Sequence record: OR352941.1
Length of the DNA stretch: 64,000 nt
Reading direction: 5' to 3' (one strand)
Source of the DNA: Escherichia phage AV111
How positions within the stretch are numbered: the stretch's first letter is position 1; each line of letters starts with the position of its first letter. Made by a program: the position numbers and the translations under genes. Below, one piece after another: positions 940-55,587 of the stretch. Below the pieces are notes generated by a model. That model was not told where the DNA came from, ran no database searches, and saw nothing but the letters and a program-made list of their open reading frames with translations.

Positions 940-940
940 T

Positions 941-2556: not shown

Positions 2557-2597
2557 GTTTACCTCAATACAATTATTATATACTCAATTCGTAAAGC

Positions 2598-3994: not shown

Positions 3995-4056
3995 TTTTTT
4001 TGCATCTCGCGTTAATTGATGCGATGGTTTTTTTTTTGCAGGTCTTACTTAAATTA

Positions 4057-4458
4057 TTATAGATTCGGTTTATATGATTTAAATGTTTCGAATTCGCCTT
4101 TATTCATAAGAGCTTTGAATTCATCAGGACGCATAGCTTTGTCGTCGATAATCCAATCATATACTGGTTTATGTGTTAGCAAATTATGGTACTTCAAACC
4201 AATGTTTTCCAAGTTCTGAATAAGACTTGGGAGAATGTCAATTGCTATACGACCAGGACCTACTGACTTCATACCACGAGCAGTGTAAAGCGTTATGGTA
4301 TGCCCTGCATCATACAGGGCATTAATGGCAGACACCATTTCGACGTCTGGTTTGAAGTTCACGTAATCACGATTGTTATTCCATTCCGTGATGCAATCAT
4401 CGACATCAAAACAAAGATTAAGCATGTTTTCTACACAGTGCATTAGATTCGTTCCCAT
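4057..4458 (-). CDS. HAD-superfamily sugar-phosphate phosphatase (KdsC/GmhB-like), 133 aa
   Basis: N-terminal FDVDDCIT = HAD motif I (DxD); small size typical of HAD IIIA phosphatases; overlaps upstream gene end. Confidence 0.65.
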   Translation of the reverse strand: MGTNLMHCVENMLNLCFDVDDCITEWNNNRDYVNFKPDVEMVSAINALYDAGHTITLYTARGMKSVGPGRIAIDILPSLIQNLENIGLKYHNLLTHKPVYDWIIDDKAMRPDEFKALMNKGEFETFKSYKPNL

Positions 4459-6128: not shown

Positions 6129-6169
6129 GTTGAAGTCCTCATTGGTAAGTAGGAGTATTGTACACTATT

Positions 6170-6313
6170 CTAGTTAAAGCATTCATACTTTGCTTGTAGT
6201 CCAATCATAATCCATCCAATTACAAGTGTTGGAATCATTACCGGAGCCGTTAAGCTCCAGTAGATAGTCATGACAAGCATCAATAGTAAAAGTCCTATTG
6301 TTATTGCTTTCAT
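6170..6313 (-). CDS. small hydrophobic membrane protein, 47 aa (not in ORF track; imm-region small protein)
   Basis: Own translation MKAITIGLLLLMLVMTIYWSLTAPVMIPTLVIGWIMIGLQAKYECFN; ATG overlaps stop of SIS gene (ATGA). Confidence 0.4.
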   Translation of the reverse strand: MKAITIGLLLLMLVMTIYWSLTAPVMIPTLVIGWIMIGLQAKYECFN

Positions 6314-6945
6314 TGTTCGCCTCGTAACATGGCACCTAGTGCACCGCCTGGATGGAACTTAAGGAAATCATTAGAGGTAAATCCACGTTCAGACGAAAGG
6401 TTGATAGCAAACGTATCGATAAGCGCTAACAACAATGTAGTGGACATTGTCGGAGCTAAAGAGTTCTCGTCAACTTCTACCGCGATACCGGTACAGAACG
6501 TATAATCAAAAAGAGCTTCGTATTCTTGTGGAATGTCAGGGTTACAATGTAACAGAATCTGTTTAACCTGAGGACGAATCATACGAAGATGTTTAGCAAC
6601 ACCTATCATTTCTTCAGTCTTACCAGAACGACTGATGTGAACTAATACATCATTAGGTGCAATAAATCCTGCGTCACCATGAGAATAATGCCCAGTGTTC
6701 AAGTACATACTCGGGATACCGAGTGAAGCAAATGTCTCAGAAGCTTTAGTTGCGATATTAGCATTCTTACCAACACCTGTAATAATTACCCGGCTTTCAT
6801 AATTGCTAAGTCCGGGGCGTCGAAGAGTTTCTAGAATAGCATTATAACGAGCAGGGTTTTGACTAATTACTTTGGCCATAGCGGCCAAAGAAGAAGCTTG
6901 TTTTATGATTGCGTCAATAGCGATAGTAATAGGAGTAGTTTTCAT
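6310..6945 (-). CDS. SIS-domain sugar-phosphate isomerase (KdsD/KpsF-type arabinose-5-phosphate isomerase-like, no CBS domains), 211 aa
   Basis: RVIITGVGKNANIATKASETFASLGIPS...HGDAG resembles the KdsD GxGKSxxIxxKxAATxASTGTP...HGDLG core rather than the GmhA GNGGS motif. Confidence 0.7.
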   Translation of the reverse strand: MKTTPITIAIDAIIKQASSLAAMAKVISQNPARYNAILETLRRPGLSNYESRVIITGVGKNANIATKASETFASLGIPSMYLNTGHYSHGDAGFIAPNDVLVHISRSGKTEEMIGVAKHLRMIRPQVKQILLHCNPDIPQEYEALFDYTFCTGIAVEVDENSLAPTMSTTLLLALIDTFAINLSSERGFTSNDFLKFHPGGALGAMLRGEQ

Positions 6946-6985
6946 ATTTCTCTCATTTAATTAGTTTACCGTCCATGACATTATA

Positions 6986-41662: not shown

Positions 41663-41992
41663 TTATACTCGAGGCTTTTGAGCTTGTTTGGTATTGGATT
41701 CCCATGCAGCTTTGGTAATTTTGTTAGCGGCATAACCAAAGGCATTAGATAGAACACCTTTAGAGTTGAATACATCCAATCCAATAAGTACACCGGCTGC
41801 GTTAAATTTAGGAGCAAAGTATGCATTAGTTTTAGAAAGAGCTTTTTTCAATTCAGGGTCTTGAACCAAACCATCAAAAACGCCTTTACTATTTACTTTA
41901 TATGTTACTTTGGGATTTTTACCTTCTTCGATAGCAGCTTTCTGTTCCGCAGATAATGTAACTTCAGTGATAAACTCTTGATACGTTTTCAT
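41663..41992 (-). CDS. internal head protein with capsid-targeting leader (MKTYQEFITEV)
   Basis: N-terminal CTS consensus shared with T4 IPI/IPII/IPIII. Confidence 0.7.
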   Translation of the reverse strand: MKTYQEFITEVTLSAEQKAAIEEGKNPKVTYKVNSKGVFDGLVQDPELKKALSKTNAYFAPKFNAAGVLIGLDVFNSKGVLSNAFGYAANKITKAAWESNTKQAQKPRV

Positions 41993-42055
41993 TTTTGTTT
42001 CCTTGTTTATTTTGATAGAGTAATTATACCATATTAATACTTAAGCGTAAACAAT

Positions 42056-42316
42056 TTAAGCTTTACCGCCAGAAATAATTCCGAAGTTGTTAAAATCGTA
42101 TCCAATATCGTCAACATCTACTTTAGGGCTTGCTACAACATAAGCAATTTCACTACGTTTTGCATAGGTGTTGATTTCTTTACCATCGCCACCTAAGAAA
42201 GAATACCCATTACGTTTTAATGAGCCAAAGTCTTCCGCATCACCAATGAAAGCTTTAACTTTAAATTTAGGACCTTTGGCATCTGCTTCAATGATAAATT
42301 CTTGATACATTTTCAT
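42056..42316 (-). CDS. internal head protein with capsid-targeting leader (MKMYQEFIIEA)
   Basis: CTS-like N-terminus. Confidence 0.7.
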   Translation of the reverse strand: MKMYQEFIIEADAKGPKFKVKAFIGDAEDFGSLKRNGYSFLGGDGKEINTYAKRSEIAYVVASPKVDVDDIGYDFNNFGIISGGKA

Positions 42317-42322
42317 TTTTCC

Positions 42323-42736
42323 TTAGTAAATTGATTTGCCATAATATTTATACCAAGACGGCCGTTGAGCAATTTTTTCATCTAAGCGTGCTTGACTTAT
42401 CGCAATGGACGCTTCGGACGGGTCATAATTATTACGAAATTCGGCAGGGATGTCGGAAATATCCTGGACTGTCGTGTCCTTGATTTTGAAACCACGTTTC
42501 AAGCATTCAGCGATTAGCTCGATTTGACGTAAACGTAAAAATTCGAGTTTGTCGTAAAAGAATGTTACGTGACCTGTGCCTAAGATAAATGTTGGAGAGA
42601 TTTTAAAATCCTTTACACGTTTACCGTTTTGAACATGTTTACGGACTGCACCAAATACGCGTGGTAATTCACGATACTCAGCCATAAGATGTTGGTCGGA
42701 CAGTTCAGAAACAAGTGTTAAATTGATACGAGTCAT
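42323..42736 (-). CDS. denV: endonuclease V (pyrimidine-dimer DNA glycosylase) DenV
   Basis: [35 protein letters not shown]... matches T4 DenV; start taken at MTRINL. Confidence 0.93.
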
Positions 42737-42763
42737 AATTTCCTCCAAGTAGTTGATGAATGT

Positions 42764-42793
42764 ATAGTATCAAAACCCTTGGAGGAAGTAAAC
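42764..42793 (-). promoter_or_regulatory. early promoter (-35 GTTTAC, -10 TACTAT) inside inverted repeat
   Basis: rc GTTTACTTCCTCCAAGGGTTTTGATACTAT upstream of denV. Confidence 0.55.
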
Positions 42794-42794
42794 A

Positions 42795-43076
42795 CTATTT
42801 TTCTGAAGCGCCTGAAATATATTTTTCAAGACGTTGTTTCATTAGCGAGCCGTTCTTAGCGATTTCTTCCGGTTTATCGCACATACGTAACAAGGCTTCA
42901 AGCTTAGCGATATCGCTGGTACGTTCAAATTTGCGAGTATCTATCTTACTAGCAAGTTCAGAAATACGTGCTAATAGACTTTCGGCTTCAACCAAAGCTG
43001 CACCTAGCTTAGTTGCAAATGTGTCAGTAGCTTCGTTAAGAATAGATTCTGATAAAAATTCACTATATGTTTTCAT
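42795..43076 (-). CDS. internal head protein with capsid-targeting leader ([10 protein letters not shown])
   Basis: CTS-like N-terminus from internal Met; abuts lysozyme stop. Confidence 0.65.
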
Positions 43077-43561
43077 ATATACGCTTTCCAAGTTCCTGTT
43101 TTAAATGTTGAGATTACGCGTTTCGCGCGATTAGGTGTCTGACGATACCATTTAGATTGGGCTAGATTTACTGCCGCTTCATCCCAACGTTTCTGTTGAA
43201 GCATACGAAGAGAATTAGTAAAACCGGCGACGCCTGATATACCCATTTGGAAGACCATATTGACCAATGCACACCGACGAACCGCATCTAAAGAATCATA
43301 TACCGGTTTAAGTTTAGCATTACCCAAGATTCCGCGAACGGCTTTATCAACGTCTTCATTAAATAGCTTTTCAGCCTCATCAAGGGTAATTGTACCGTTG
43401 CATTTACGTCCGATCATTCTGTCAAGTTCAGCTTTAGCTACGGCTAAAGACGGATTCTTTGTTACTAAATGGCCAATGCCAATAGTCCAAAAGCCTTCGG
43501 TGTCTTTGTATAAAATCAGTCTAAGACCTTCGTCATTACGAAGCATTTCAAATATATTCAT
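43073..43561 (-). CDS. e: lysozyme (endolysin) e
   Basis: [31 protein letters not shown]... roughly 80% identical to T4 lysozyme; catalytic E11/D20/T26 present. Confidence 0.95.
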
Positions 43562-43595
43562 AATACCTCCCACGTTTATAGGAGGTATTTATTAC

Positions 43596-44054
43596 TTATA
43601 GGAGTGTAGTGAGCACCTTATATAATGATTTGCCCATTACATATTCCCATTGAGAAGGTTTAATTAAAGCGAATGCATCAAATTCAGGAATCTGTCGTCC
43701 GTCTGGGAATGTATGATAGGAATTACAAACACTGTTTCTGAATTGCTCGTGCTCTACAGGGATGGTATATAGGAACAGATGAATATTCTTATTGTCTGAG
43801 TAATGATGTTCACCTAGGTCTTTCAGGAAGGCAGGGTCATATTGTGTAAACCCGGTTTCTTCTTCGCATTCACGAATAGCGGCTTCAATAGGAGATTCGC
43901 CAGGTTCGACACGGCCTTTAGGAATATCCCACCGATGAGCTAAAGAACCTTTAGGACGAGAACCAGTTACACGCCCCATGAATAATTCTTTATCTTCGGT
44001 AAGGAAAATAATACCGGCTGATAGTTCTTTCACTTTATTTTTCTTACTCATCAT
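43596..44054 (-). CDS. nudE: Nudix hydrolase NudE
   Basis: Nudix box GRVEPGESPIEAAIRECEEETG. Confidence 0.85.
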   Translation of the reverse strand: MMSKKNKVKELSAGIIFLTEDKELFMGRVTGSRPKGSLAHRWDIPKGRVEPGESPIEAAIRECEEETGFTQYDPAFLKDLGEHHYSDNKNIHLFLYTIPVEHEQFRNSVCNSYHTFPDGRQIPEFDAFALIKPSQWEYVMGKSLYKVLTTLL

Positions 44055-44280
44055 CTCGGTCCCATGATTTGGCCATTAATTCGGACATAAATTCTTCAAT
44101 GCGCGTTTCTTTAGATGGACTTTCACTATTAGAGACCGCAAGTTTGTAATCTGCAATAGGACAGAACATATCAAGGTCCATATTAAGGTCGTCTTTGATT
44201 TTTTCTTCTGACACATCTTTATCGTATGTGTACAGATAACTATCACATGATTCTGATTTAATGTAAATTGCTATACTCAT
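44044..44280 (-). CDS. hypothetical acidic protein (~78 aa)
   Basis: ORF track 44044..44295; internal Met start avoids overlap. Confidence 0.4.
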   Translation of the reverse strand: MSIAIYIKSESCDSYLYTYDKDVSEEKIKDDLNMDLDMFCPIADYKLAVSNSESPSKETRIEEFMSELMAKSWDRDDE

Positions 44281-44768
44281 CTCAAATTCCTGCATTCGGT
44301 AATAAAACGTTCAACTTCATTATTCTTGGCCTTTATCTTGTCTTTACGTTCCTGTAAACTACTTTTAACAAGATTAATAATGATGCCTACAGTACCGCCG
44401 CCAATGATGCCACCAACAACACTTATGATAATAGATGCTAATAAGATAGCAATAATATCAACAAAACCGAAAGAACTCACCTTAGTACTAAAAAACCATA
44501 CCGATGGTACAAATATAATCCATCCTGCTATCCATTGGCACTTATTGAAAAACTTTTCAAGATCAGCTTGAGTTGTTCGTATTACTTCATCGATAGGTTG
44601 ATAACCGTTAATGTATCTGTTCACGATAATACCTGCTGGCTGGTCGATTTTAAATTCTTGGCAAATACGTTTAACTAAGTAGGATGGACATCCTGTCCAA
44701 TCTACTGAATAGTATGAAATACCTTCGTTGCCATCGTCTATATTAGACCAATATGTTTTGTTAATCAT
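44277..44768 (-). CDS. membrane protein, 163 aa
   Basis: ORF track; two TM helices and glycine-zipper region. Confidence 0.5.
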   Translation of the reverse strand: MINKTYWSNIDDGNEGISYYSVDWTGCPSYLVKRICQEFKIDQPAGIIVNRYINGYQPIDEVIRTTQADLEKFFNKCQWIAGWIIFVPSVWFFSTKVSSFGFVDIIAILLASIIISVVGGIIGGGTVGIIINLVKSSLQERKDKIKAKNNEVERFITECRNLR

Positions 44769-45454
44769 TACCAGCCTTCCATAGGGAATTCCAGATAAAC
44801 TTGAGCGTTGACACGAATTTCATTGGTAATCTTTTTAACTCGGTCTGTATTACGAGATACACGTCCGAACCAACGCCATCCATTACTAATTGCACGAGAA
44901 CCAGTGTGCCATGTTTGCCAATCAAACTGAAGAAGAGTACGGTCTGGAGCTTCCCATTTCTCTAGTTCACCTTTTTCAATTTTTTCGAGGACTTCTTTGT
45001 GCCACTGGCGATAGATAAGTTCACCATCAGGAATCTGACTGAACTCTGCAGTTCCTGTTGCAAAATGAGTAGGACACACATCAGCGTTAACAAGACCAAG
45101 AATATGTTCAGATAAATAGCGAGGATTGTCATAATCAGGTTGTCCTGCAGTAATAAAGTGTTGACCAACTGGAATATCAGGGCGTGGTACGTCATCATGG
45201 TGATAACCTGGGATAGCAGGGTACCAACCGGGCATCAGCATATGAACCCGAGAATCAAATACAACATGTTGATTAGTCCAATCAATTGGGAGATTGGCAA
45301 TAAAGCTACGAGTGATTGAGCCACCATTATCCCAAGCAAAACCCAAATCACAATTAAAGAACATTGGTTCATTTTTGATTCGGTCATTTTGTACGTTATG
45401 TGCAAAACTACCAACTGCACGAGCTTGACTATTAAACACTTTAGAACTATTCAT
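44768..45454 (-). CDS. hypothetical protein, 228 aa
   Basis: ORF track. Confidence 0.55.
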   Translation of the reverse strand: MNSSKVFNSQARAVGSFAHNVQNDRIKNEPMFFNCDLGFAWDNGGSITRSFIANLPIDWTNQHVVFDSRVHMLMPGWYPAIPGYHHDDVPRPDIPVGQHFITAGQPDYDNPRYLSEHILGLVNADVCPTHFATGTAEFSQIPDGELIYRQWHKEVLEKIEKGELEKWEAPDRTLLQFDWQTWHTGSRAISNGWRWFGRVSRNTDRVKKITNEIRVNAQVYLEFPMEGW

Positions 45455-45455
45455 A

Positions 45456-45761
45456 TTATTTTCCTCGACATTCTTTAATGAAATTTTCTAGATTGGTAGA
45501 TTCAATAGCTTTTTTACGAGCTTCTGCGTGTTCTTCTTCAGACAATTTACATTTATAATTGACCCAGACGTTATGGTCGAAACTAGTCGTGGCATATAAT
45601 AACAATGCTCCAACGAATAGCAAAAACGGCGATAAGAATACAAAACCAGGAACACCATCCATACTGTAAGCCTTTTGTAATACTGCAACAGAAAGAGTTG
45701 CGTAAAAAGGTGATGCAAGTATTGTTAAAAGACCAATTCGATTGGTTTCTGTTAATTTCAT
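45456..45761 (-). CDS. membrane protein, 101 aa
   Basis: ORF track. Confidence 0.5.
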   Translation of the reverse strand: MKLTETNRIGLLTILASPFYATLSVAVLQKAYSMDGVPGFVFLSPFLLFVGALLLYATTSFDHNVWVNYKCKLSEEEHAEARKKAIESTNLENFIKECRGK

Positions 45762-45789
45762 AATATTCTCCTCATGTTTTAATAGGACT

Positions 45790-45819
45790 ACTATAACATA
45801 GTCCTATAATTGTGTAAAC
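45790..45819 (-). promoter_or_regulatory. early promoter copy (GTTTAC-18-TATAGT) in palindrome ATAGGACTA...TAGTCCTAT
   Basis: Repeat family with 35824, 47085, 54505. Confidence 0.6.
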
Positions 45820-45831
45820 AGTTTTGTGAAG

Positions 45832-46788
45832 TTATTTGAAAGGTTTTACCATATGGAAATTTTGTTTGAAACGTTTGACGTAATCGTCATGTCCTAAGCT
45901 TTGGTACATACTTACTACTTTGCTGTAGTTTTCCCAGGCGTATTCACGGAACCAACCGGAGGTGATGCTTGTGCAGACTTTTTCCAATGCCATTATGAAA
46001 CTGGCTTCAGGGTTAATTTCAAAGTTATTAGGAATCTGAGAACGTTCTAATGCTAGTACACATGATTCTTCATATACACCGGCCAATTTGACCATTTCTG
46101 GTAATGATTCGAACTTCTCGCGTGAGGTCATGACTTCAGAACCATCTTTCATGTAAAATGTATACGCTGGACGGTCAGTTAGTGCAATGGCTTCATGGAT
46201 AGTATCATGGTCATATGTATAGATGTCATCTTTAAAGAACGCACTTTTAGAAGTGTCAAGAACTGGGTGAGCATAATTCAAGGTTTCTTTCTGGCGTTTC
46301 AGCATAATTTCAGTAAGTTCATCGTTCAGTGTAACACCTTTACCACGAAGATACTGAATATGGTTCATAGTCTTTAAAAAGAATGGATTATTTTTCTTGA
46401 AACGATGAGACATCTTAATTGCAAGACATATCTCAGGAGTTGCCCAGTAAAACCCGTTCAAACGGTCTTTAGTCAAATTTTTCTTGGCGTATTTTAAAAG
46501 GTCATAAGAAGACGTGAAATCTTCAGGAGTGAGTTCACCGACTAATTCACGGACATTAGTGATTGCCGGAACAATATATGCTTCAAAATGAGTTTCGCGT
46601 CCATTATGGAAGCATTTGAAAACTTGGACATCAGGGTTATCTTGGTGAACATATACACCCATCATTTGATTTTTGAATGCATTCCAAGAACATTGGTCCG
46701 CAATAAAGTCCCAATCACTATTTTTAATAGCGCTAGAATCAATAAGACCGTGATAGTGAAGTGCACGAGAACCAATAACTAACATCAT
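45832..46788 (-). CDS. hypothetical protein, 318 aa
   Basis: ORF track. Confidence 0.55.
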   Translation of the reverse strand: MMLVIGSRALHYHGLIDSSAIKNSDWDFIADQCSWNAFKNQMMGVYVHQDNPDVQVFKCFHNGRETHFEAYIVPAITNVRELVGELTPEDFTSSYDLLKYAKKNLTKDRLNGFYWATPEICLAIKMSHRFKKNNPFFLKTMNHIQYLRGKGVTLNDELTEIMLKRQKETLNYAHPVLDTSKSAFFKDDIYTYDHDTIHEAIALTDRPAYTFYMKDGSEVMTSREKFESLPEMVKLAGVYEESCVLALERSQIPNNFEINPEASFIMALEKVCTSITSGWFREYAWENYSKVVSMYQSLGHDDYVKRFKQNFHMVKPFK

Positions 46789-46816
46789 AATATTTTCCTC
46801 GGATTAATTCATTAAC

Positions 46817-47068
46817 TTAAATTTCACGACATGCGATATTATATTCATCCCAGAGGTCATCATGTGAAGCCTCTACCAATGGAACGATTGTACCGTTTAT
46901 GTCTTCATTATAAGGGCAAATTGTACAGTGCGCATCTTCGAATCGGATGCCTTTGTGTTCAGATTTTTTATAACGCATATCGAATATCTTTGCAAACTTT
47001 TCACGAGTAATGGTTTTAGCAACTACTTTGGTTCCGATACTTTCGTAATAAATCATTGTGGACTCCAT
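46817..47068 (-). CDS. hypothetical protein, 83 aa
   Basis: ORF track; start codon immediately downstream of promoter copy. Confidence 0.5.
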   Translation of the reverse strand: MESTMIYYESIGTKVVAKTITREKFAKIFDMRYKKSEHKGIRFEDAHCTICPYNEDINGTIVPLVEASHDDLWDEYNIACREI

Positions 47069-47084
47069 TTGTTTTGATAGGACT

Positions 47085-47114
47085 ACTATAACATAGCCCT
47101 ATCTTGTTGTAAAC
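47085..47114 (-). promoter_or_regulatory. early promoter copy (GTTTAC-18-TATAGT) in palindrome
   Basis: rc GTTTACAACAAGATAGGGCTATGTTATAGTAGTCCTATC. Confidence 0.6.
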
Positions 47115-47118
47115 TGTT

Positions 47119-47316
47119 TTAGCAAGAATAACTAGATGATACCCAGCCTTGAACAGTGATACTATTGTGGGATAATGAGATCGCGTCCTGGAGATTCAGA
47201 CCTGCGTTATCTTCAATCCATAATGTAACTTCTTCGCGTTCTTCTGTTGCAATTTGGAACAGGTTTTCCAGAGCAGCTACTGCCGTACGTACAGCACAAT
47301 CTAATTCACGAGACAT
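47119..47316 (-). CDS. small protein, paralog family member (C-terminal GWVSSSYSC)
   Basis: Shares C-terminal GWV[AS]SS..C with the next two ORFs. Confidence 0.5.
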   Translation of the reverse strand: MSRELDCAVRTAVAALENLFQIATEEREEVTLWIEDNAGLNLQDAISLSHNSITVQGWVSSSYSC

Positions 47317-47325
47317 ATGGTTTCC

Positions 47326-47598
47326 TTAGCAAGTGTGAGAAGATGCGACCCAGCCGCCATCTTCAAGGCTCAGGTTGTAGTCGTATTGGTAAACGTCAGC
47401 CCATTCAGCCTGGCCGTTTTTTGTACAACGTTCAAGATCGGCTTTAAGATGTCCGGGTGAATGATAGGTTCCACCCATACCATAAGCTGGATACAAGTTG
47501 AACGTTGTGTTTTGTTTATCAGCAATTTCTTTGGCAGCCTCAATAGCTGCATAGATTTTTGCTACAGCTTCAGCCAGTTCGGTTTGTTCTTTAGACAT
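47326..47598 (-). CDS. small protein, paralog family member (C-terminal GGWVASSHTC)
   Basis: Tandem paralog. Confidence 0.55.
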   Translation of the reverse strand: MSKEQTELAEAVAKIYAAIEAAKEIADKQNTTFNLYPAYGMGGTYHSPGHLKADLERCTKNGQAEWADVYQYDYNLSLEDGGWVASSHTC

Positions 47599-47607
47599 AA
47601 TGATTCC

Positions 47608-47913
47608 TTAGCACAACGCAGAAGACGAAACCCAAGCACCTTCAGTAATAACGTAACCATTACCTTCACGCTTAACATCGCCACCATTATTTTCAATTTC
47701 ATCTTTCATCCACTGGGATACGATTTCACCCTTAGGATAATAAGTACGGCCGCTACCATAATCACCTACAGAAAATGATACGGCATATTGGTCTGCGATC
47801 TTTGTTGCTTCTTCTTCGATACGTTCAGCTTGATTCAGAAGTTTATAAATTGCATCTGAAGCGGATTTGGCATCATTAAACTCTGGTACTTTAATTTCAA
47901 TAATCTTACTCAT
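47608..47913 (-). CDS. small protein, paralog family member (C-terminal GAWVSSSALC)
   Basis: Tandem paralog. Confidence 0.55.
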   Translation of the reverse strand: MSKIIEIKVPEFNDAKSASDAIYKLLNQAERIEEEATKIADQYAVSFSVGDYGSGRTYYPKGEIVSQWMKDEIENNGGDVKREGNGYVITEGAWVSSSALC

Positions 47914-48269
47914 TTTCTACATTCCTTAATAAAGTTTTCGATTGTTTCATTTTCACGTTTAGCTAGAAGTTCATTATAACTAATCATTTGAGAAGCGTAA
48001 ATATTTTTATTTTTCTTGTTATGGTTTATAAAATCGTAGTAAAAATAGACTACGGTACAAAAGGATGCGATGGATGCAAAGGCTTGGGTATACCGTAAGT
48101 CCTGCCATTGGTCTGTGAATCCACCAGTGTTCCCTATAAATCCTAACACAACGCCGTCAATAAGAAATCCAACTAATCCAAAGGCAAATCCCATGCCAAT
48201 ACTCATAATAAAAATTAGAATGTTCTCACCAAGAGAAGGCCATACGGTTAAGAGTTGAGGCTTTTGCAT
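47910..48269 (-). CDS. membrane protein, 119 aa
   Basis: ORF track. Confidence 0.5.
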   Translation of the reverse strand: MQKPQLLTVWPSLGENILIFIMSIGMGFAFGLVGFLIDGVVLGFIGNTGGFTDQWQDLRYTQAFASIASFCTVVYFYYDFINHNKKNKNIYASQMISYNELLAKRENETIENFIKECRK

Positions 48270-48673
48270 CTTATTTCCTTAACGAATTCCATAGCTTCTT
48301 CATATTCATACTTTTTAACAGCTTCATCATACTGAGCTTTGGCTTTTGCGCACTGAACTTTCCATTCACGAACTCGAGCTCTGTGATGACGGCCTTGGTA
48401 CCAATATCCCACCCAGTTAATAGGCATTAATAAAAATGGCACAATAAACGGCCCGGCTATAACAAGTAAAAACACTGCATCAGACGATATAACTTCACTA
48501 GAATCTAAAACAGCTCCTATAATCATAAAGATTAAAAATGCTAAAGCTAAAATAGGGCCAAATAGTACTTCGTTTGGGATTAATTTACGTTTGTATTCGT
48601 ATGCCCAGGGCTTACTTGGCATGTATAGGGTTGGCTTTGACATATTCTCTACATTCCATAATAAATTGCTCAA
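48248..48673 (-). CDS. membrane protein, 141 aa
   Basis: ORF track. Confidence 0.5.
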   Translation of the reverse strand: MSNLLWNVENMSKPTLYMPSKPWAYEYKRKLIPNEVLFGPILALAFLIFMIIGAVLDSSEVISSDAVFLLVIAGPFIVPFLLMPINWVGYWYQGRHHRARVREWKVQCAKAKAQYDEAVKKYEYEEAMEFVKEIRCKSLNS

Positions 48674-49214
48674 GGATTAAATTGTTAGTGAAATTAGGAC
48701 TAACAACCATAGTTTCATAAAGCGCGTCAATAGCACTTAAAGCATCAACTCTTTTAAGCAAAGGCTTGCCTTCATACATAGTTTCAGAATCGATGATTAA
48801 CGTAAAGTAATATTTTTTATTATCGACTAGAACTTCTGTATCGATATAAAACATATTAGACCTCAGAAGCTTATCTCTAAAACCATAATAATCTTCTGAA
48901 CGTTCACTGATATATTCCAATTCGGTGTTTAAACAACAAACAGACCACGTAGGAGCAACGAAATCAGTGAATCTAATATCATGGTCTGCAACTAGTTTAG
49001 CAATAGCTCCGATATCATGAATCATAATACCTGGGGCTAATAAAGATTTTCTGCTATGGCTAGCCGTTTTCTCGGTGGTCTCATAAGAAGACGACCAGTA
49101 CCATTTACGTCCGGTTGCAACATATCGTAATGAATCAACTAAAGACGTAGGTGGATTTACCTTATCTCGGAACTCTTCGAACATTGAGTCAATATCATTA
49201 TTTTGGTTTCGCAT
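48612..49214 (-). CDS. hypothetical protein (~200 aa)
   Basis: ORF track 48612..49235; internal MRNQNNDID start after terminator. Confidence 0.5.
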   Translation of the reverse strand: MRNQNNDIDSMFEEFRDKVNPPTSLVDSLRYVATGRKWYWSSSYETTEKTASHSRKSLLAPGIMIHDIGAIAKLVADHDIRFTDFVAPTWSVCCLNTELEYISERSEDYYGFRDKLLRSNMFYIDTEVLVDNKKYYFTLIIDSETMYEGKPLLKRVDALSAIDALYETMVVSPNFTNNLILEQFIMECREYVKANPIHAK

Positions 49215-49231
49215 GTTAACTCCTTTATTAT

Positions 49232-49255
49232 CCAAAAGGAGGACCGGAGTCCTCC
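49232..49255 (-). terminator. rho-independent terminator (GGAGGAC-TCCG-GTCCTCC + TTTTGG)
   Basis: Hairpin just downstream of the stop of 49264..49872. Confidence 0.6.
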
Positions 49256-49263
49256 GTATTATT

Positions 49264-49872
49264 TTATTTCAAAGAGTTAATATATTCTTGTACATCAGCA
49301 GAAGTGGTTTCAACACCAGCTGGAGTGCCATTGAACGTTTCAACACGAGTCAGAGTATCTTCGATATCAACCTTAGTCAGTGCAGCGATTTCAATTACAT
49401 CATCGGCCGTAGAGATACCAAGGGCATTAGCTGCTCGAGTTTCACGAATGTATTCGAGTTTGATTGCCAGATTCTGACGAGCATCATCAAGTTCAACCAC
49501 CTTACGAGCAATTTCAATTCGCATAGCGGCATACCCATCAGCTTTTGTATTAAGTTGTTCGGCAGTTCGACGATACAGAAGACCAAGCTTAGCATGCATA
49601 GTAACATCTTGTCCTTCAGCCAGGAGCTTACGAATTTCACGTTCCTTAGAAGCGGCTTGCTTGTTCTTTTCATTAACAAGTTCGCGAATACGTTTTTCTT
49701 CATTAATAGATTTAACAGAAGCCGTTTTTAGTTCTTTGATTTGGGTAATCAACTTATCTGCAGCTGCGTTATACTGTTCTTCGACAGTCAGATTTTTAGC
49801 CATAGCAGTACCCAGTTTAGTGCGGATGAATTCAACAAGTTTCTTCAGTGTGTTCATATTATTACCTTTCAA
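49264..49872 (-). CDS. coiled-coil protein, 202 aa
   Basis: ORF track. Confidence 0.55.
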
Positions 49873-49882
49873 TTGGTGGTTT

Positions 49883-49910
49883 ATTATCCAACGAGAGCAT
49901 TATACTCTGC
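49883..49910 (-). promoter_or_regulatory. early promoter (-35 TTTACA, -10 TATAAT) inside inverted repeat
   Basis: Duplicate of the 19666..19694 element. Confidence 0.55.
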
Positions 49911-49927
49911 TCTCAAGAGTTTGTAAA

Positions 49928-50155
49928 TTATTTTTTAATCAAATTGACATAAAACTTGGCGTCTTCGGGGTGCATGCCTTCGCAGTATTCTTCAACCATG
50001 AACTTCTTAACAGCTTCATAAGGACCACTCAGATTAAGCTCAGTTGTCCAGAACTTGGAATCTTGGGCTGAATCGATACGAACTTCAGGGTGTCGGTTGC
50101 GAATAACTTCTTCGGTGTATTCATAATCAACGACATCAATACTAACTTTAGCCAT
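49928..50155 (-). CDS. hypothetical protein, 75 aa
   Basis: ORF track. Confidence 0.45.
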   Translation of the reverse strand: MAKVSIDVVDYEYTEEVIRNRHPEVRIDSAQDSKFWTTELNLSGPYEAVKKFMVEEYCEGMHPEDAKFYVNLIKK

Positions 50156-50202
50156 TTTGTTTCTCCTCTTGATTTGATGTGATTACTATAACATAAACGT
50201 AC

Positions 50203-50367
50203 TTAGATGTAAATTATTTCAACGTCACCTTTAGCTGCTTTATAACCTTCAGCCCAAGATACAACAGAGTTTTTATCTGAGGATTCAAATTCAGGCATTG
50301 GACTTTCACCAATATTCACACAGTATGTTTCTTCATTTTCATCAAACCAAATAATTAAAGTAGTCAT
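50203..50367 (-). CDS. small protein, 54 aa (not in ORF track)
   Basis: Own translation MTTLIIWFDENEETYCVNIGESPMPEFESS...; GGAG RBS; promoter 50398..50425 upstream. Confidence 0.35.
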   Translation of the reverse strand: MTTLIIWFDENEETYCVNIGESPMPEFESSDKNSVVSWAEGYKAAKGDVEIIYI

Positions 50368-50434
50368 TTTGTTTACTCCTCTGTAGTTGATAAGTCTATA
50401 GTATCACCATCCTTGGGGCTTGTACATCATTATT

Positions 50435-50740
50435 TTATTTTTTCCAACTCAACAACTTGTAGTGCCCTTCATTCGTACGAGGTTTATCCCAAGAAATACT
50501 AATATATGATTCGCTGTCAATAGAAGTCGCCGGGTTTTTCTCTACCGTAAGACCTTCACTTTCCAGCCACTCAATAGTATTTGCGCATAAATCTGAAGAA
50601 CACCTAATCGGAAACCGGCAAGATTTTTCACCTTTAGCTGCAGCGTTATACATCTTTTCTAAAATACGCTTTTGCACGTTTTTAAAAATAGTTTCAGCAG
50701 ATTCTTCAGATTTTTTATTCAGTTCAGTGTAAAGACTCAT
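50435..50740 (-). CDS. hypothetical protein, 101 aa
   Basis: ORF track; promoter 50769..50797 upstream. Confidence 0.5.
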   Translation of the reverse strand: MSLYTELNKKSEESAETIFKNVQKRILEKMYNAAAKGEKSCRFPIRCSSDLCANTIEWLESEGLTVEKNPATSIDSESYISISWDKPRTNEGHYKLLSWKK

Positions 50741-50768
50741 AACATTTTCCTCTGTGGTTGATAAGTCT

Positions 50769-50797
50769 ATAGTATCATGTCCTTAGAAGAAGTAAAC
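50769..50797 (-). promoter_or_regulatory. early promoter (-35 GTTTAC, -10 TACTAT)
   Basis: rc GTTTACTTCTTCTAAGGACATGATACTAT, directly downstream of terminator 50829..50857. Confidence 0.55.
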
Positions 50798-50828
50798 ATC
50801 TTTATGAAATATTTTTATGCCCTAGATA

Positions 50829-50857
50829 CCAAAAAGCCCCAACCTTTCGGAAGGGGC
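50829..50857 (-). terminator. rho-independent terminator (GCCCC-ttccgaaaggtt-GGGGC + U-tract), repeat family
   Basis: Nearly identical to 51373..51402. Confidence 0.6.
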
Positions 50858-50863
50858 ATTCTA

Positions 50864-51127
50864 TTATTTAATTTGTTTAGCAGACCAGATACGGTCTTTA
50901 ATAAGTTTTTGGATATCTTCAACATACTCAAGGCTATGAGCGTGAGGATTATCTTTGAAGCTATGTGCTCGTGCCAGTTTCTGGCCTTCTGTTTTGATTA
51001 CTAAAAGCTCTTTAAGAATTGCTTCATACTTAGAAATAATTCCTTTGGCGATATTTTTTTTCTTGAGCTGCTTTAGGGTCCGCTTTTGGCGCAGGTGCTT
51101 TACCTGTAGCTTTCTGGAACAATTCAC
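50864..51127 (-). CDS. hypothetical lysine-rich protein, 87 aa (overlaps 3' end of next gene)
   Basis: ORF track; 98-nt out-of-frame overlap with 51030..51329 makes one of the two starts doubtful. Confidence 0.35.
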   Translation of the reverse strand: MNCSRKLQVKHLRQKRTLKQLKKKNIAKGIISKYEAILKELLVIKTEGQKLARAHSFKDNPHAHSLEYVEDIQKLIKDRIWSAKQIK

Positions 51128-51329
51128 CTGATGCAGCTAGGCTTTTAAAAACTCGGCTAACAGTATTAGCATTAGTAAAACCTTCGGCTTTAAAATCTCT
51201 AATAAAACGGAAACGTTCTTCATCAGAGGCGTCTTTGTAAGAATATTTACCTGCTTGAATTGCTGCAATCGCAGCGGCTTTTACATCTGAACTAGATTGT
51301 TCAGTCAAAAATTCAGCGTATGATTTCAT
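51030..51329 (-). CDS. internal head protein with capsid-targeting leader (MKSYAEFLTEQ)
   Basis: CTS-like N-terminus. Confidence 0.6.
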   Translation of the reverse strand: MKSYAEFLTEQSSSDVKAAAIAAIQAGKYSYKDASDEERFRFIRDFKAEGFTNANTVSRVFKSLAASGELFQKATGKAPAPKADPKAAQEKKYRQRNYF

Positions 51330-51372
51330 GTTGCTTTTCCTAAGTTAATTAACTTATCTATTTATTATTATG

Positions 51373-51402
51373 CCAAAAAGCCCCGACCTTTCGGAAGGGG
51401 CT
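51373..51402 (-). terminator. rho-independent terminator (AGCCCC-ttccgaaaggtc-GGGGCT + TTTTTGG)
   Basis: Hairpin plus U-tract at the downstream end of the structured RNA region. Confidence 0.6.
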
Positions 51403-51712
51403 AAGCCTTGCGGCAACCTTGTCGGGGTTCCACCTGCTAAGGCAAGTGTTTGTACGAAACGCCGGGATTCGAACCCGGTTATTAAGTAGTTGACGCTACT
51501 CAATATTTTTAAAAGGCCATATCTCGACCATATCCGAACGTTCCGTCAAAAACGCTACTCGGCTTACGGCAAAGATATTTCCTCGAATCGATAATTCGGT
51601 GCGCCGTTTCTGCTGTGATGTAAGGGGATATTAACGAATCATAAAGATTTATTAAGACCAGTCCTTACTCAGGGAACATCAGTCCGACGACTTACCGGTA
51701 GCGACCCGGCTT
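51403..51712 (-). ncRNA. non-coding structured RNA region with a canonical tRNA-like T-arm (CCGGGTTCGAATCCCGG at 51461-51477); possible small stable RNAs or degenerate tRNA
   Basis: No ORF of 60 aa or more; T-arm consensus on minus strand; I could not fold a complete cloverleaf by hand. Confidence 0.3.
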
Positions 51713-51713
51713 C

Positions 51714-52058
51714 TTATTTTGGCATATCATCAATTTGCTCTCGACGCCGACGCCATAGATTAATCGCTTCATTGGCACATTCTGCGTTTGGTATATGACG
51801 GCAATAATATAATGATTCGCGTTTCTGGAACCGATGTTGTAATGGGATTTCGTTTAAAAGGTCTTTACGGTCAAAGTATTCAAAACTAGTTAACCCGGAA
51901 CGGTTTTTAATGAACTTCCAATGTCCAAATTCATTTTGAACATAGATGTAATCGGCATGTTGGTATAACAAATTAATCAATCGGTCTGAAATAACTGTAT
52001 CATGTTCGTTAAAATAAAACGTTAAATCATGAACTACCAGATAAATATTGCCTTTCAT
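51714..52058 (-). CDS. hypothetical protein (~114 aa; start at internal MKGNIYLVV)
   Basis: ORF track 51714..52109; the listed N-terminus overlaps tRNA-Arg, so the internal Met is used. Confidence 0.5.
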   Translation of the reverse strand: MKGNIYLVVHDLTFYFNEHDTVISDRLINLLYQHADYIYVQNEFGHWKFIKNRSGLTSFEYFDRKDLLNEIPLQHRFQKRESLYYCRHIPNAECANEAINLWRRRREQIDDMPK

Positions 52059-52076
52059 ATTTTCCTCACTTAAAGT

Positions 52077-52152
52077 TGGTGCCTCTAGAAAGATTTGAAC
52101 TCTCACCATTAACCTTAGAATGATTATATGCTATCCATTACACTATAGAGGC
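52077..52152 (-). tRNA. tRNA-Arg (anticodon UCU), 76 nt with encoded CCA
   Basis: Hand-folded cloverleaf: acceptor GCCTCTA/TAGAGGC, D-arm with GG, anticodon loop ATTCTAA, T-arm GAGAG-TTCAAAT-CTTTC, ACCA end. Confidence 0.75.
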
Positions 52153-52809
52153 AATTAAATTATTTACAATATCTTCTTTATAAACTTCAGCATAATGAAG
52201 TTCATATATTTCCCATCCTAATGATTTTATAATATCATGGCGTTCTTTATAATAAGGGGCCAAAATCTTTTTCTTAGGATTGGAGTAATGTTGGTTTCCA
52301 TTAACTTCAATAATAATCTTTTTATCTATTAAAGCAATATCCGTGCAATACGCTCGGTTTTTAACCGGTTGGTATTCTTCAATAAATGAAATTCCATTTT
52401 CTATTAATTTAGATTTCAAAAATTCACAAGGCACAGATTTAAATTTTGTATTTTTCTTCCAAGGATGTTTATCGGGGTTTTCATTCAACCATTTTTTCCG
52501 AGCATTAGATATTTTTATTCTAGCTTCCTCAGAGTGTTCTCTACCTAATGAAGCGGCTGACAATTTTTGTCTAGTCTCTTCCGAAATTACTACAGGAACA
52601 CCAGTCTTTTTAGATACAACATACTGGTTTAAATTACCTGAAGCTATACGTGCTTTATTCATTGCTGCAATGGCTGATTTAGAACTTTCTTTATACAATT
52701 CCAATTTAGGGTTGGATTTACACCATCTAGTGTGGTTAGCCATCCATCCTTTAGGTTTATTAGAAATATCAAATTCCATATTACAATGTTTACAAATGCT
52801 CATTACCAA
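52138..52809 (-). CDS. homing endonuclease-like protein: N-terminal zinc finger, NUMOD3-like motif, C-terminal Vsr/DUF559-like PD-(D/E)xK nuclease domain
   Basis: CKHCN...WCKSNPK; SEETRQKLSAASLGREHSEEARIKIS; YCTDIALIDKKIIIEVNGNQHYS; last 5 codons overlap tRNA-Arg 5' end. Confidence 0.65.
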   Translation of the reverse strand: MVMSICKHCNMEFDISNKPKGWMANHTRWCKSNPKLELYKESSKSAIAAMNKARIASGNLNQYVVSKKTGVPVVISEETRQKLSAASLGREHSEEARIKISNARKKWLNENPDKHPWKKNTKFKSVPCEFLKSKLIENGISFIEEYQPVKNRAYCTDIALIDKKIIIEVNGNQHYSNPKKKILAPYYKERHDIIKSLGWEIYELHYAEVYKEDIVNNLIASIV

Positions 52810-52877
52810 TTATCTCCTATAAAATATAGGAGTATTTATTATTTGGATAGAGCACTTAATTTACTTCGTTTAAATTA

Positions 52878-52949
52878 CTGGCGCACTTTGACTCGAACCA
52901 AGATAAAGGAGTTAACAGCTCCCCGTAATAACCTTTATACGATGCACCA
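52878..52949 (-). tRNA. tRNA-Asn (anticodon GUU), CCA not encoded
   Basis: Acceptor TGGTGCA/TGCGCCA, anticodon loop CTGTTAA, T-loop TTCGAGT; T-stem has one mismatch. Confidence 0.6.
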
Positions 52950-52955
52950 TTTGTT

Positions 52956-53030
52956 TGGTGACCCTGGCTGGTTTCGATCCAGCTACCTATCAGTTATGAG
53001 CTGACAGCTCTCCCATTGAGCTACAGGGCC
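52956..53030 (-). tRNA. tRNA with CAU anticodon (Ile2/lysidine-type or elongator Met), 75 nt with encoded CCA
   Basis: Acceptor GGCCCTG/CAGGGTC with C4-G69 and C5-G68, D-stem GCTC/GAGC, anticodon loop CTCATAA, T-arm GCTGG-ATCGAAA-CCAGC. Confidence 0.75.
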
Positions 53031-53109
53031 TAAATAACTTTCTATTATGAAAGGCACTTTAGAGCACCTTTGGTAATAGAGGGTATTAATTAATAATAAC
53101 ACATAATTC

Positions 53110-53625
53110 TTAAAGCAAATCAATCATTTTAACAGTTGGCAAAACGATTTCTTCTTCAATATAAGCAAATTCAACACATTCAACTACACGCAAGAAATCA
53201 TAATCATAATATTCAGAAGCATGACCAAGAATATCAATGAGACCTTCTGATACCAAATATCCATTCTCACGGAACAGGTCGAATACACGCGATTCGTCTT
53301 CTTCAGATTTATTACCAAGGTCGACTTCAATATCAAAGACCTTTTTAATGAATTCTGGATAAAGCTGGTCCGAGAACAGTCCTTCAACTAAGTATTCATA
53401 GATTAAAAGTGAGCAATCACTGAATGGTGTATTACCACAGTAACGTTCAGCTTTAGTGCTGGAATGACGACTCTTAAATTTCTTCAAAAGATATTTAAAC
53501 TGTTGGAGCTCATGCTCTTCCACACCAAATAACGTTTTGGTTTTATAGTTGTCGCCGTCATTTTCCCAAGTAGTGACATCAATTACGTAACCCTTAGGAA
53601 TTGTACTGCCTAAACAAATATTCAT
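53110..53625 (-). CDS. hypothetical acidic protein, 171 aa
   Basis: ORF track. Confidence 0.55.
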   Translation of the reverse strand: MNICLGSTIPKGYVIDVTTWENDGDNYKTKTLFGVEEHELQQFKYLLKKFKSRHSSTKAERYCGNTPFSDCSLLIYEYLVEGLFSDQLYPEFIKKVFDIEVDLGNKSEEDESRVFDLFRENGYLVSEGLIDILGHASEYYDYDFLRVVECVEFAYIEEEIVLPTVKMIDLL

Positions 53626-53629
53626 TTAC

Positions 53630-53920
53630 TCACCGTACCATATTAATGTAATTATATTCAATGCAACGTAATTTCAAAGGATTCTTGAAAATATCATATT
53701 CAAGAGGACCTTTTTCTGTTTCAATAAAGAAATCAAAGTTCACACTATTAAATTTGCGGTCTTCCCAAAGTAATTTAACCTGTGAAGATGAACGGTCGAC
53801 GTAAACCTTTTCAACTTCAAAGTGGGTCAAAATACCATAGTAATCGACTAGTGCTTTAGCTGCACGTTGATCGCTCTCATATCCGTTCTCGACAGATTTT
53901 ACTTTAGCATAAAGAATCAT
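53630..53920 (-). CDS. hypothetical protein, 96 aa
   Basis: ORF track. Confidence 0.5.
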   Translation of the reverse strand: MILYAKVKSVENGYESDQRAAKALVDYYGILTHFEVEKVYVDRSSSQVKLLWEDRKFNSVNFDFFIETEKGPLEYDIFKNPLKLRCIEYNYINMVR

Positions 53921-54288
53921 GAATGTTCCACCATTTCAAAGGTATGAGCATCAACAATATGATACCAGTCAAAATTTTCTTCCGCGTTTTTATAAATTTC
54001 GCGAAGAGCCTCAACAGTTTTTCCTGTAGCAACAAGGTCGTCAATACCACCAAGAGGATAACAGTCATAACCAGCAAACAGAAGGAAATTAATAGTTTCT
54101 GTAGGTTCTGGATGCAGTGTACCGTTGTCATCGACTACTTCAAAGAAAGTGTAAGAAGGAGTACAAGTTTTAATCCAAGCCCATGCTTGAGCTGCCGAAT
54201 CAAATGGTCTGCGTATTAAACGACAATCAGGGTCTTTAGAAGGATTTGCTTCAAAATCCGCATATACGTGATATTTCATTTTACTCAC
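53917..54288 (-). CDS. hypothetical protein, 123 aa
   Basis: ORF track. Confidence 0.5.
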   Translation of the reverse strand: MSKMKYHVYADFEANPSKDPDCRLIRRPFDSAAQAWAWIKTCTPSYTFFEVVDDNGTLHPEPTETINFLLFAGYDCYPLGGIDDLVATGKTVEALREIYKNAEENFDWYHIVDAHTFEMVEHS

Positions 54289-54488
54289 CTTTTTGCAATT
54301 TTATCCATAACGATAGCGATTAAACCGATTAGAAATGCTACTACCAATGAGATAGAATTTTCAGTTGTTGTCAGTAGTCCGCAAATGAATCCTACAAACA
54401 TCGAAAAACTAAAAGCCATTGAAGCAATTACTACAGCAACATTACGAATCAGTTCAGCGCGTTTCATTTTATTTCTCCATTTACTCAT
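54285..54488 (-). CDS. small membrane protein, 67 aa
   Basis: ORF track; hydrophobic. Confidence 0.5.
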   Translation of the reverse strand: MSKWRNKMKRAELIRNVAVVIASMAFSFSMFVGFICGLLTTTENSISLVVAFLIGLIAIVMDKIAKR

Positions 54489-54504
54489 TTGTTTTGATAG
54501 GACT

Positions 54505-54534
54505 ACTATAACATAATCCTATCAGCATGTAAAC
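54505..54534 (-). promoter_or_regulatory. early promoter copy (GTTTAC-18-TATAGT) in palindrome
   Basis: Repeat family; further related element with duplicated TGTAAACTGTTTTGTG at 54850..54905. Confidence 0.6.
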
Positions 54535-54537
54535 TAC

Positions 54538-54825
54538 TTACAGAAGAGTTTTTGCAATAATTTTAAGCTGAGCTACAGAAATATGCTTAGCTTTAAACAG
54601 TGCAGTCTCTTCAGCCGGAGAGATAACAATAGTAGCGCCGTCTTTCTTAGCAGACCATCCATCCCCTAAGTAAACAGTACCTTTTACTTCTTCGCCGTCA
54701 ACCAGACTAATCATTGGTTTACCCTCACGTCCTTTATTTGTTTTAATAACTTCGGAAGTAAGGGTTGCTTCGGTCAGAGTAGAAACGTTAGCATCAGGTG
54801 ATATAAATTCTTTATAGGTTTTCAT
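54538..54825 (-). CDS. internal head protein with capsid-targeting leader (MKTYKEFISP); ipI-like position next to 57B
   Basis: CTS-like N-terminus; location matches T4 ipI. Confidence 0.65.
   Translation of the reverse strand: MKTYKEFISPDANVSTLTEATLTSEVIKTNKGREGKPMISLVDGEEVKGTVYLGDGWSAKKDGATIVISPAEETALFKAKHISVAQLKIIAKTLL

Positions 54826-54844: not shown

Positions 54845-55587
<743 letters not shown>

Follow-up and report, generated by a model that had tools for sequence, protein, structure and literature searches.

Five open reading frames (ORFs) on the minus strand of a 64,000-nucleotide stretch of Escherichia phage AV111 (OR352941.1; the whole stretch is called the window here) are, with a probability that we put at about 80%, internal-protein (IP) genes of an RB69-like T-even phage. 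Each would encode a small cargo protein tagged with a capsid-targeting sequence (CTS), which would be cut by the prohead protease gp21, packaged in the head and injected into the host. The region under study runs from 41663 to 54825, and the sequence identities, the conservation of the leader motif, the junctions of cassette swaps and a frameshift can all be read directly from its DNA. The five ORFs had been picked out in an initial annotation of the window, and every one was recovered at its coordinates on the minus strand with the start MK.Y.EF; the fourth of them, as described below, is part of a longer gene:

41663-41992, minus strand: RB69ORF123c-type internal-protein candidate; leader MKTYQEFITE with site ITE10; precursor of 109 amino acids (aa), predicted mature protein of 99 aa with pI 9.7
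42056-42316, minus strand: RB69ORF125c-type internal head protein; leader MKMYQEFIIE with site IIE10; precursor of 86 aa, predicted mature protein of 76 aa with pI 6.4
42795-43076, minus strand: Ip5-family internal head protein at the position of RB69ORF127c; leader with cleavage site LSE10; precursor of 93 aa
50864-51329, minus strand: RB32ORF132c/PhAPEC2_134-type internal-protein candidate (gene 4); 154 codons, with a +1 A frameshift
51030-51329, minus strand: truncated 99-aa reading of gene 4, its 5' two-thirds; leader MKSYAEFLTE with site LTE10
54538-54825, minus strand: ipI, internal protein I; precursor of 95 aa with the 19-residue leader MKTYKEFISPDANVSTLTE (MKTYKEFISP...LTE19); mature IPI* of 76 aa

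Within the window the leader is confined to these genes. A six-frame regular-expression scan of the 64 kb found MK.Y.EF exactly five times, each time at the start of one of the five ORFs, and 100 shuffles of the window gave a mean of 0.0 leader matches; a looser leader pattern added one spurious 38-codon ORF on the opposite strand. All five proteins thus start M-K-x-Y-x-E-F, and all have a gp21-type (I/L)-x-E site. Tyr4, Phe7 and Ile or Leu at position 8 occur in 5/5 leaders and Glu10 in 4/5, IPI having instead Pro10 and the site LTE17-19, so that a leader ending in Glu at its tenth residue, as the initial annotation described it, fits all but IPI. Mutagenesis of T4 IPIII showed that the first ten residues suffice for prohead loading, with residues 4 and 7 acting in targeting and residues 8 and 10 in processing, and foreign proteins fused to the CTS are packaged in T4 heads and delivered into the host (PMC9026906). 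The targeting determinants Tyr4 and Phe7 and the (I/L)-x-E site are kept in the window proteins, which agrees with the earlier identification of the leader as the T4 CTS.

Behind the leader the proteins are unrelated, as had also been claimed for them. All-against-all BLASTP with the leader-stripped bodies gave no significant pair, the best E value among the window proteins being 1.0, and the predicted mature products range from 76 to 99 aa (144 aa for the intact gene 4) with pI values of 6.3-9.8. Searches of Pfam and NCBIfam with the five proteins returned no family match except for IPI, and PDB sequence searches with the four non-IPI proteins returned nothing below an E value of 0.07. This combination has a precedent in the published description of T-even internal proteins as diverse defence proteins in which only the CTS is conserved (PMC3012670).

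For ipI the likeness extends to the body. The protein matches Pfam PF11634 (IPI_T4) over residues 20-95 with an E value of 5.8e-50 (167.6 bits against a gathering cut-off of 25), the same residues are colinear with residues 1-76 of IPI* (PDB 2JUB; E 2.3e-41, 71/76 identical), and overall it is 92.7% identical to T4 ipI. Because residues 20-95 match residues 1-76 of the mature protein, the cleavage site is placed at LTE17-19. Judged by these matches the window ipI is a true IPI orthologue, and its mature IPI* is a predicted inhibitor of GmrSD-type restriction. It shares with T4 IPI its length of 95 aa, its place beside 57B and a 19-residue propeptide ending in (I/L)TE and followed by ATLTSE; it differs by five substitutions in the mature part and by a diverged propeptide (MKTYKEFISPDANVSTLTE in the window, MKTFKEFTSTTTPVSTITE in T4). 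The two phages also differ in their DNA, since T4 has glucosylated hydroxymethylcytosine whereas the window phage instead has genes for a modification of the arabinosylated 5-hydroxycytosine type. Thomas et al. 2018 (PMC6024577) report that GmrSD cleaves the arabinosylated DNA of RB69 and that RB69 IPI prevents this restriction; the RB69 protein departs from T4 IPI at four residues, the window allele at five. The initial annotation had named IPI as an inhibitor of a modification-dependent restriction enzyme, and the orthologue in the window and the reported protection by RB69 IPI support this.

The five genes also lie where internal-protein genes are expected. The 14-kb leader-gene region matched 936 phage records, the best being those of Escherichia phages HY126 and F31 (identity about 96%, query coverage 93-95%), and the annotated relatives that we examined are Mosigvirus; by sequence the window is that of an RB69-like T-even phage (Mosigvirus, RB69 group of Tevenvirinae). 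Between 41.6 and 54.9 kb transcription is from the minus strand, including that of all five leader ORFs, and the genes follow one another as in RB69 and T4: vs.8, a pair of leader ORFs, denV, a further leader ORF, e, nudE, the e.x group, leader ORF 4, the tRNA cluster, tRNA.2-4, ipI, 57B, 57A and gene 1. Synteny with RB69 and T4 holds at both classical IP loci, vs.8-denV-e and tRNA.4-57B, and four of the five leader genes fall within these two hypervariable loci, around denV/e and beside 57B. Gene 4 fits an IP locus only loosely: its site is a third one, flanked by the e.x genes on one side and the tRNA cluster on the other, and ipI is some 3.2 kb distant. Arbiol et al. (PMC2839356) cite more than 30 IP variants and a pair of highly variable IP loci, and Ip4-Ip12 and other polymorphic T-even internal proteins were, according to the later papers that cite the original work (Repoila et al. 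1994; Comeau et al. 2007, cited in PMC12373910 and PMC2839356), found through their signal sequence at hypervariable loci.

Comparison with relatives indicates how unrelated bodies could come to stand behind one leader. The window and phage Shf125875 do not differ in the upstream region or anywhere in the 30-nt leader; beyond its last codon the window continues with the ORF123c-type body and Shf125875 with an IpII body; the two sequences rejoin at the start of vs.8. An IpII homologue thus occupies in Shf125875 the exact slot of the ORF123c-type gene. In phage ATK47 the ORF123c-type gene stands directly behind the upstream region of ORF125c, which means that a deletion from one leader to the other removed ORF125c. 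Mature bodies without mutual similarity thus share a leader, and the cassettes are polymorphic between related phages. The 30-nt leader and the upstream expression signals would also be the place where recombination exchanges, adds or removes cargo genes, and this would explain both the unrelated bodies and the differing repertoires of close relatives. In equivalent regions we counted five leader ORFs in the window, seven in RB69, six in Shf125875 and, in ATK47, four by scanning and in addition an annotated Ip7, and with more than 30 variants described the number of five, which the initial annotation set beside the three of T4, is not unusual. The window is without RB69ORF124c and without the Ip7- or Ip9-type gene that relatives carry beside ipI.

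The T4 proteins IpII and IpIII, inhibitors of the GmrSD enzymes of ECOR21 and ECOR17, respectively (PMC12373910), resemble the window proteins in leader type (MKTYQEFI.E), in their denV/e locus, in small size and in having unrelated bodies. Their own bodies showed no similarity to any window protein (BLASTP E 0.068 or worse), and tblastn of both against the whole window found nothing significant. Ejection proteins of other phages (P22 gp7, gp16 and gp20, the T7 core proteins, the N4 virion RNA polymerase, the inner-body proteins of phiKZ-like phages) likewise travel in the head, in many cases after trimming by the prohead protease, and reach the host with the DNA, but most of them are large, conserved proteins that build a conduit or function in transcription, whereas T4-type internal proteins are small, non-essential, interchangeable cargo with a portable 10-residue tag.

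The three remaining genes around denV and e differ in how far they had been recognized before. The ORF125c-type protein matches phrog_2667 ('internal head protein') with an E value of 7e-21 and occurs in 217 phage records, many RefSeq entries among them giving it the name 'internal head protein'. A perfect T4 late-promoter box lies before it:

42352-42345, minus strand: late-promoter box TATAAATA, 36 nt upstream of the ATG of the ORF125c-type gene

The gene at 42795-43076, whose ATG overlaps the stop codon of the lysozyme gene e, is a member of the Ip5 family, its product matching phrog_3499 ('internal head protein') over profile positions 1-85/85 with an E value of 2e-46. The family, present in 496 phage records, is annotated as ip5 or ipV in VR25 (88% identity), JK08 and PST; identity to PST ipV, JK08 ip5, T2 and T6 is about 47%. 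The protein has additional LxE sites at residues 15 and 30.

The ORF123c type and gene 4 are, by contrast with the named Ip4-Ip12 proteins, 'hypothetical' or unannotated in nearly all database rows examined. The protein at 41663-41992 is 97% identical to RB69ORF123c, and its type occurs in 90 phage records, nearly all of those listed being annotated 'hypothetical protein'. It matches phrog_3966, for which no function is annotated, with an E value of 1.5e-32, and its matches to internal-protein PHROGs are only of leader length. HMMER with the ORF123c body against 1.84 billion representatives found one distant phage homologue. The distant homologue P0013, at 33% identity, likewise begins MKTYQQFITE; leader and body have therefore stayed together over a long divergence. 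An early-promoter-like site lies upstream of the gene:

42051-42023, minus strand: TTTACG-17-TGnTATAAT, early-promoter-like

Individual sites of this kind are only suggestive, as sigma-70-type sites are not enriched overall in the promoter scan (56 against 44 ± 6). Homologue searches gave shallow alignments, with two relatives for the ORF123c type and nine for gene 4, and the AlphaFold2 model of the ORF123c-type protein (pLDDT 57) was too poor for a fold search. At residues ~58-87 the ORF123c-type body has two beta-hairpin motifs resembling YD/RHS or MORN repeats (FNAAGVLIGLDVFNSKGVLSNAFGY). Weak matches of this protein to long repeat proteins (cadherin-like, MBG and RHS/MORN-like) were rejected as inflated by repeats through the short YD-like beta-hairpin motif.

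Gene 4 is the one member that is not intact in the window. The initial annotation counted the ORF at 51030-51329 as an internal-protein gene of its own; it does bear a leader, but it is a frameshifted part of the gene at 50864-51329, the other elements of which are as follows:

51054-51061, minus strand: A8 homopolymer (coding strand) responsible for the frameshift; it follows directly on the linker, where the C-terminal domain begins
50864-51127, minus strand: ORF in the other frame, encoding the missing C-terminal 63 residues

The gene matches phrog_2280, again without annotated function, at an E value of 2.6e-31 over profile positions 1-92/178 only. Its type is found in 511 phage records, many of them Tequatrovirus, and all listed ones are 'hypothetical protein' or unannotated; the Tequatrovirus alleles, about 62% identical over the N-terminal 71 residues by tblastn, keep the leader. 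In the AlphaFold2 model of the full-length protein (mean pLDDT 73.6) residues 13-67 form an N-terminal domain of three helices and residues 85-151 a C-terminal helical hairpin, and between the two lies a disordered Pro/Lys/Ala linker (72-84). Because the frameshift falls just past the linker, the short form retains the leader and the whole N-terminal domain, and ends in a frameshift tail, KYRQRNYF, the tail peptide ending AAQEKKYRQRNYF. The fourth gene is thus truncated by a one-base expansion of the A-tract and yields at best the leader plus the N-terminal domain. Foldseek searches of the full-length model against PDB and BFVD recovered only its own uncharacterised family, matches to ferritin and other helical proteins at E values above 1 being rejected as generic helices, and a weak MerR/GemA match (E 0.06-0.08) was set aside as below threshold. 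In RB69 the gene 4 slot holds ORF149c (locus L004, 3789-4351), which has the leader MKTYAEFLTE and a different body and which the annotation splits into overlapping ORFs, 149c and 148c; the split suggests a frameshift or sequencing error there too.

By analogy with T4, the five products would act as follows. The N-terminal CTS of each precursor would bind the scaffolding core of the prohead through Tyr4 and Phe7, gp21 would cut after the Glu of (I/L)-x-E (residue 10 in four proteins, residue 19 in IPI), and the small mature protein of 76-144 aa would stay in the head with the DNA and enter the host along with it. An internal protein delivered in this way would act before any phage gene is expressed, because it arrives together with the DNA. 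IPI* would act against modification-dependent nucleases of the GmrSD type, to which arabinosylated RB69 DNA is also susceptible, and the other four would most likely be cargo directed at further variants of modification-dependent restriction or at different defences that act early. Packaging, cleavage and injection of all five products, and the targets of the four that are not IPI, are thus extrapolated from the T4 proteins. To our knowledge, genes 21 (prohead protease) and 22 (scaffold) are present in all Tevenvirinae, and from the T4 gene order we presume that they lie beyond the end of the window. Both have been called core genes (PMC9026906).

An injected anti-defence set, which the initial annotation proposed, is the standard published view of internal proteins (PMC3012670, PMC2839356, PMC12373910). 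T4 Ip1, Ip2 and Ip3 each inhibit a distinct GmrSD-type enzyme, and all genes of the Ip loci have been proposed to target variants of the GmrSD family (Silas et al. 2025, PMC12373910). Only IPI, IpII and IpIII have been demonstrated to act in this way, and the window has no homologue of the latter two. The proposal is established for IPI as a protein and is a candidate role for the products of the other four genes. Several points weigh against our interpretation. Ip4-10 of T4-like phages gave no reproducible inhibition of 15 GmrSD groups (PMC12373910), which leaves an anti-restriction role unproven for non-T4 internal proteins. Our literature search found no Mosigvirus virion proteome, and the papers found hold no direct evidence that proteins of the ORF123c, ORF125c, Ip5-like or RB32ORF132c types occur in Mosigvirus virions or are cleaved. 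Fold prediction (models of the ORF123c type and gene 4, with Foldseek for gene 4) gave no functional clue, and gene 4 is frameshifted in this genome. The leader, moreover, is not always maintained, as two leaders are degenerate in RB69: that of ORF127c (locus L004, 12576-12857) reads MKTYMNFYQN, and that of ORF123c (locus L004, 14001-14330) has Ala instead of Glu at position 10. In the window copies of the ORF127c-position and ORF123c genes both leaders are intact.

If the proteins are packaged, their role might be mainly physical: small basic proteins could neutralise or organise the condensed DNA, or aid packaging or ejection, and have no part in anti-defence. Three of the five predicted mature proteins are indeed strongly basic (the ORF123c type with pI 9.7, gene 4 with 9.6-9.8 and IPI with 9.0), solid-state NMR of T4 places about 1000 IP molecules within the DNA, with their lysines contacting DNA phosphates (PMC3012670), and the lack of reproducible anti-GmrSD activity of Ip4-10 points the same way. 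The other two are near-neutral or acidic (pI 6.3-6.4), however, a bulk charge role leaves the rapid turnover of cassettes with unrelated bodies unexplained, and all three T4 internal proteins have specific GmrSD targets (PMC12373910). We therefore regard a mainly physical role for the set as unlikely; for its basic members such a role is possible, and it would be compatible with an anti-defence role, not exclusive of it. Far less probable still is that the common 5' end is a mobile expression cassette of promoter, ribosome-binding site and first codons, and that in the genes not annotated as internal proteins the encoded peptide targets nothing to the capsid. The swap junctions do coincide with the leader, PeSL-like elements, analogues of T4-type mobile regulatory cassettes, have been noted at IP loci (PMC2839356), and early-promoter-like sites and late-promoter boxes lie upstream of several leader genes. 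But the upstream DNA differs among the five genes and conservation is confined to the coding leader, within which codons and other positions vary while exactly the targeting and cleavage residues are kept. The leader is retained, moreover, in homologues down to 33% identity, and its ten residues are by themselves enough to load foreign proteins into T4 heads (PMC9026906).

A doubt of a different kind concerns gene 4 alone, which in this genome might be a pseudogene or the product of faulty assembly; the window would then hold only four functional IP genes and the 99-aa ORF would be without function. Alignment with Shf125875 and RB18 places one extra A in the window (A8 against A7), and A7 is the state of 70/70 GenBank records with the window's gene 4 allele, as follows from each record's spanning 79/80 bases of an 80-base query. 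Orthologues of 154 codons occur in Shf125875, F31, O157 typing phage 3 (O157tp3), SHSML-52-1 and KAW3E185, the last four with an intact coding sequence of 465 nt, and homopolymer runs are classic sites of sequencing error. Against an error in this one record, two Logan assemblies that share only 96% identity with the window in the flanks, and that are without its endonuclease insertion (described below), encode the identical 99-aa product. An A6 allele (P0007) is present twice, once in a further, separate Logan assembly and once in a 172,749-base metagenome contig from ENA, and an A8-type truncation (P0008) occurs in a different lineage of gene 4 alleles. Since off-length alleles recur in independent assemblies, the variation looks real and recurrent, and the A8 tract is probably not a one-off sequencing error. 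The short form, with leader and three-helix domain intact in the model, could still be packaged and active. We consider the loss of gene 4 less likely than not, though more probable than the two preceding alternatives, and it would leave the other four genes as internal-protein genes. Exact-pattern scans of IMG/VR for the A8 and A7 alleles gave 0 and 1 matches. Tract alleles A6, A7 and A8 are all found in independent assemblies (loci L010, L011, L012 and L013), the off-length alleles truncating the protein just past the interdomain linker. With A7 the tract reads A_AAA_AAT, in formal terms a slippery heptamer for -1 shifts, and the shifted product would equal the 99-aa protein of the window.

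A bolder interpretation joins these observations: the two 'hypothetical' families, the ORF123c and RB32ORF132c types, would be unrecognised injected effectors against defences specific for arabinosylated 5-hydroxycytosine or against non-GmrSD early sensors, and the A-tract of gene 4 would be a contingency switch between two-domain and N-domain-only cargo, worked by slipped-strand mutation or by transcriptional or ribosomal slippage. We hold it to be speculative and rather improbable.

As a whole, the interpretation of the leader genes is reasonable, partly supported and already in the literature. The finding is real but ordinary, in that the hypervariability of internal proteins and their anti-restriction role are established and sequences 96-100% identical to the five window genes have been deposited before from RB69-like phages. 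Only two points are mildly new, namely the unrecognised leader on two widespread 'hypothetical' families and the recurrent variation in A-tract length at the domain boundary of one of them. These families, with 90 and 511 phage records, carry a complete leader and could be relabelled putative internal head proteins, and the 99-aa protein of the frameshifted gene 4 should not be taken at face value. Published screens used the glucosylated phages T2, T4 and T6 as testers; the internal proteins of Mosigvirus are obvious candidates for inhibitors of enzymes that attack DNA with arabinosylated cytosine.

The initial annotation placed the cargo genes next to a non-canonical DNA modification. The modification cluster is real, but it lies at ~400-7000, about 35 kb away from the leader genes. 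Pfam matches define its members:

391-6945, minus strand: cytosine hypermodification gene cluster, adjoining the DNA polymerase
1840-2556, minus strand: thymidylate-synthase homologue
2834-3994, minus strand: U32-like gene
4443-6128, minus strand: nucleotidyl transferase
6310-6945, minus strand: SIS isomerase
6986-9697: DNA polymerase, adjoining the cluster

The cluster is the counterpart of RB69 gp45-55, the arabinosyl-5-hydroxycytosine pathway (PMC13326640).

Directly upstream of ipI is an anti-defence gene:

54845-55357, minus strand: 57B, which is Acb1 (anti-CBASS; Pfam PF23474 Acb1, E 4.6e-58)

That acb1 abuts ipI fits an anti-defence neighbourhood. The protein has 170 aa in the window as against 151 aa in RB69, Shf125875 and ATK47, and its C-terminal extension ends at most 19 nt from the start of ipI.

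The endonuclease insertion mentioned above is a 223-aa ORF (52138-52809, minus strand) inside the tRNA cluster, between tRNA-Arg (52077-52152) and tRNA-Asn (52878-52949), with weak matches to DUF559/RAP (Vsr-like endonuclease). RB69, Shf125875, ATK47 and the Logan contig L010 have neither this ORF nor the tRNA-Asn, which is extra in the window; their cluster consists of tRNA-Arg and tRNA-Met only. It looks like an insertion of the homing-endonuclease type at the place where T4 has segB.

Two further groups of small genes lie between e and gene 4. At 47119-47913 (minus strand) three tandem small ORFs of 65, 90 and 101 aa, all with the C-terminus G-W-V-(S/A)-S-S-x-x-C, form a small paralogous family in the region of RB69ORF136c-139c. 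Small predicted membrane proteins with the C-terminus F-(I/V)-(K/T)-E-(C/I)-R are encoded at 44277-44768, 45456-45761, 47910-48269 and 48248-48673 (minus strand). In some of these genes the codons for this motif hold a Shine-Dalgarno-like AAGGA(A) sequence and the stop codon overlaps the next start, so the motif may be partly imposed by the downstream translation-initiation region.

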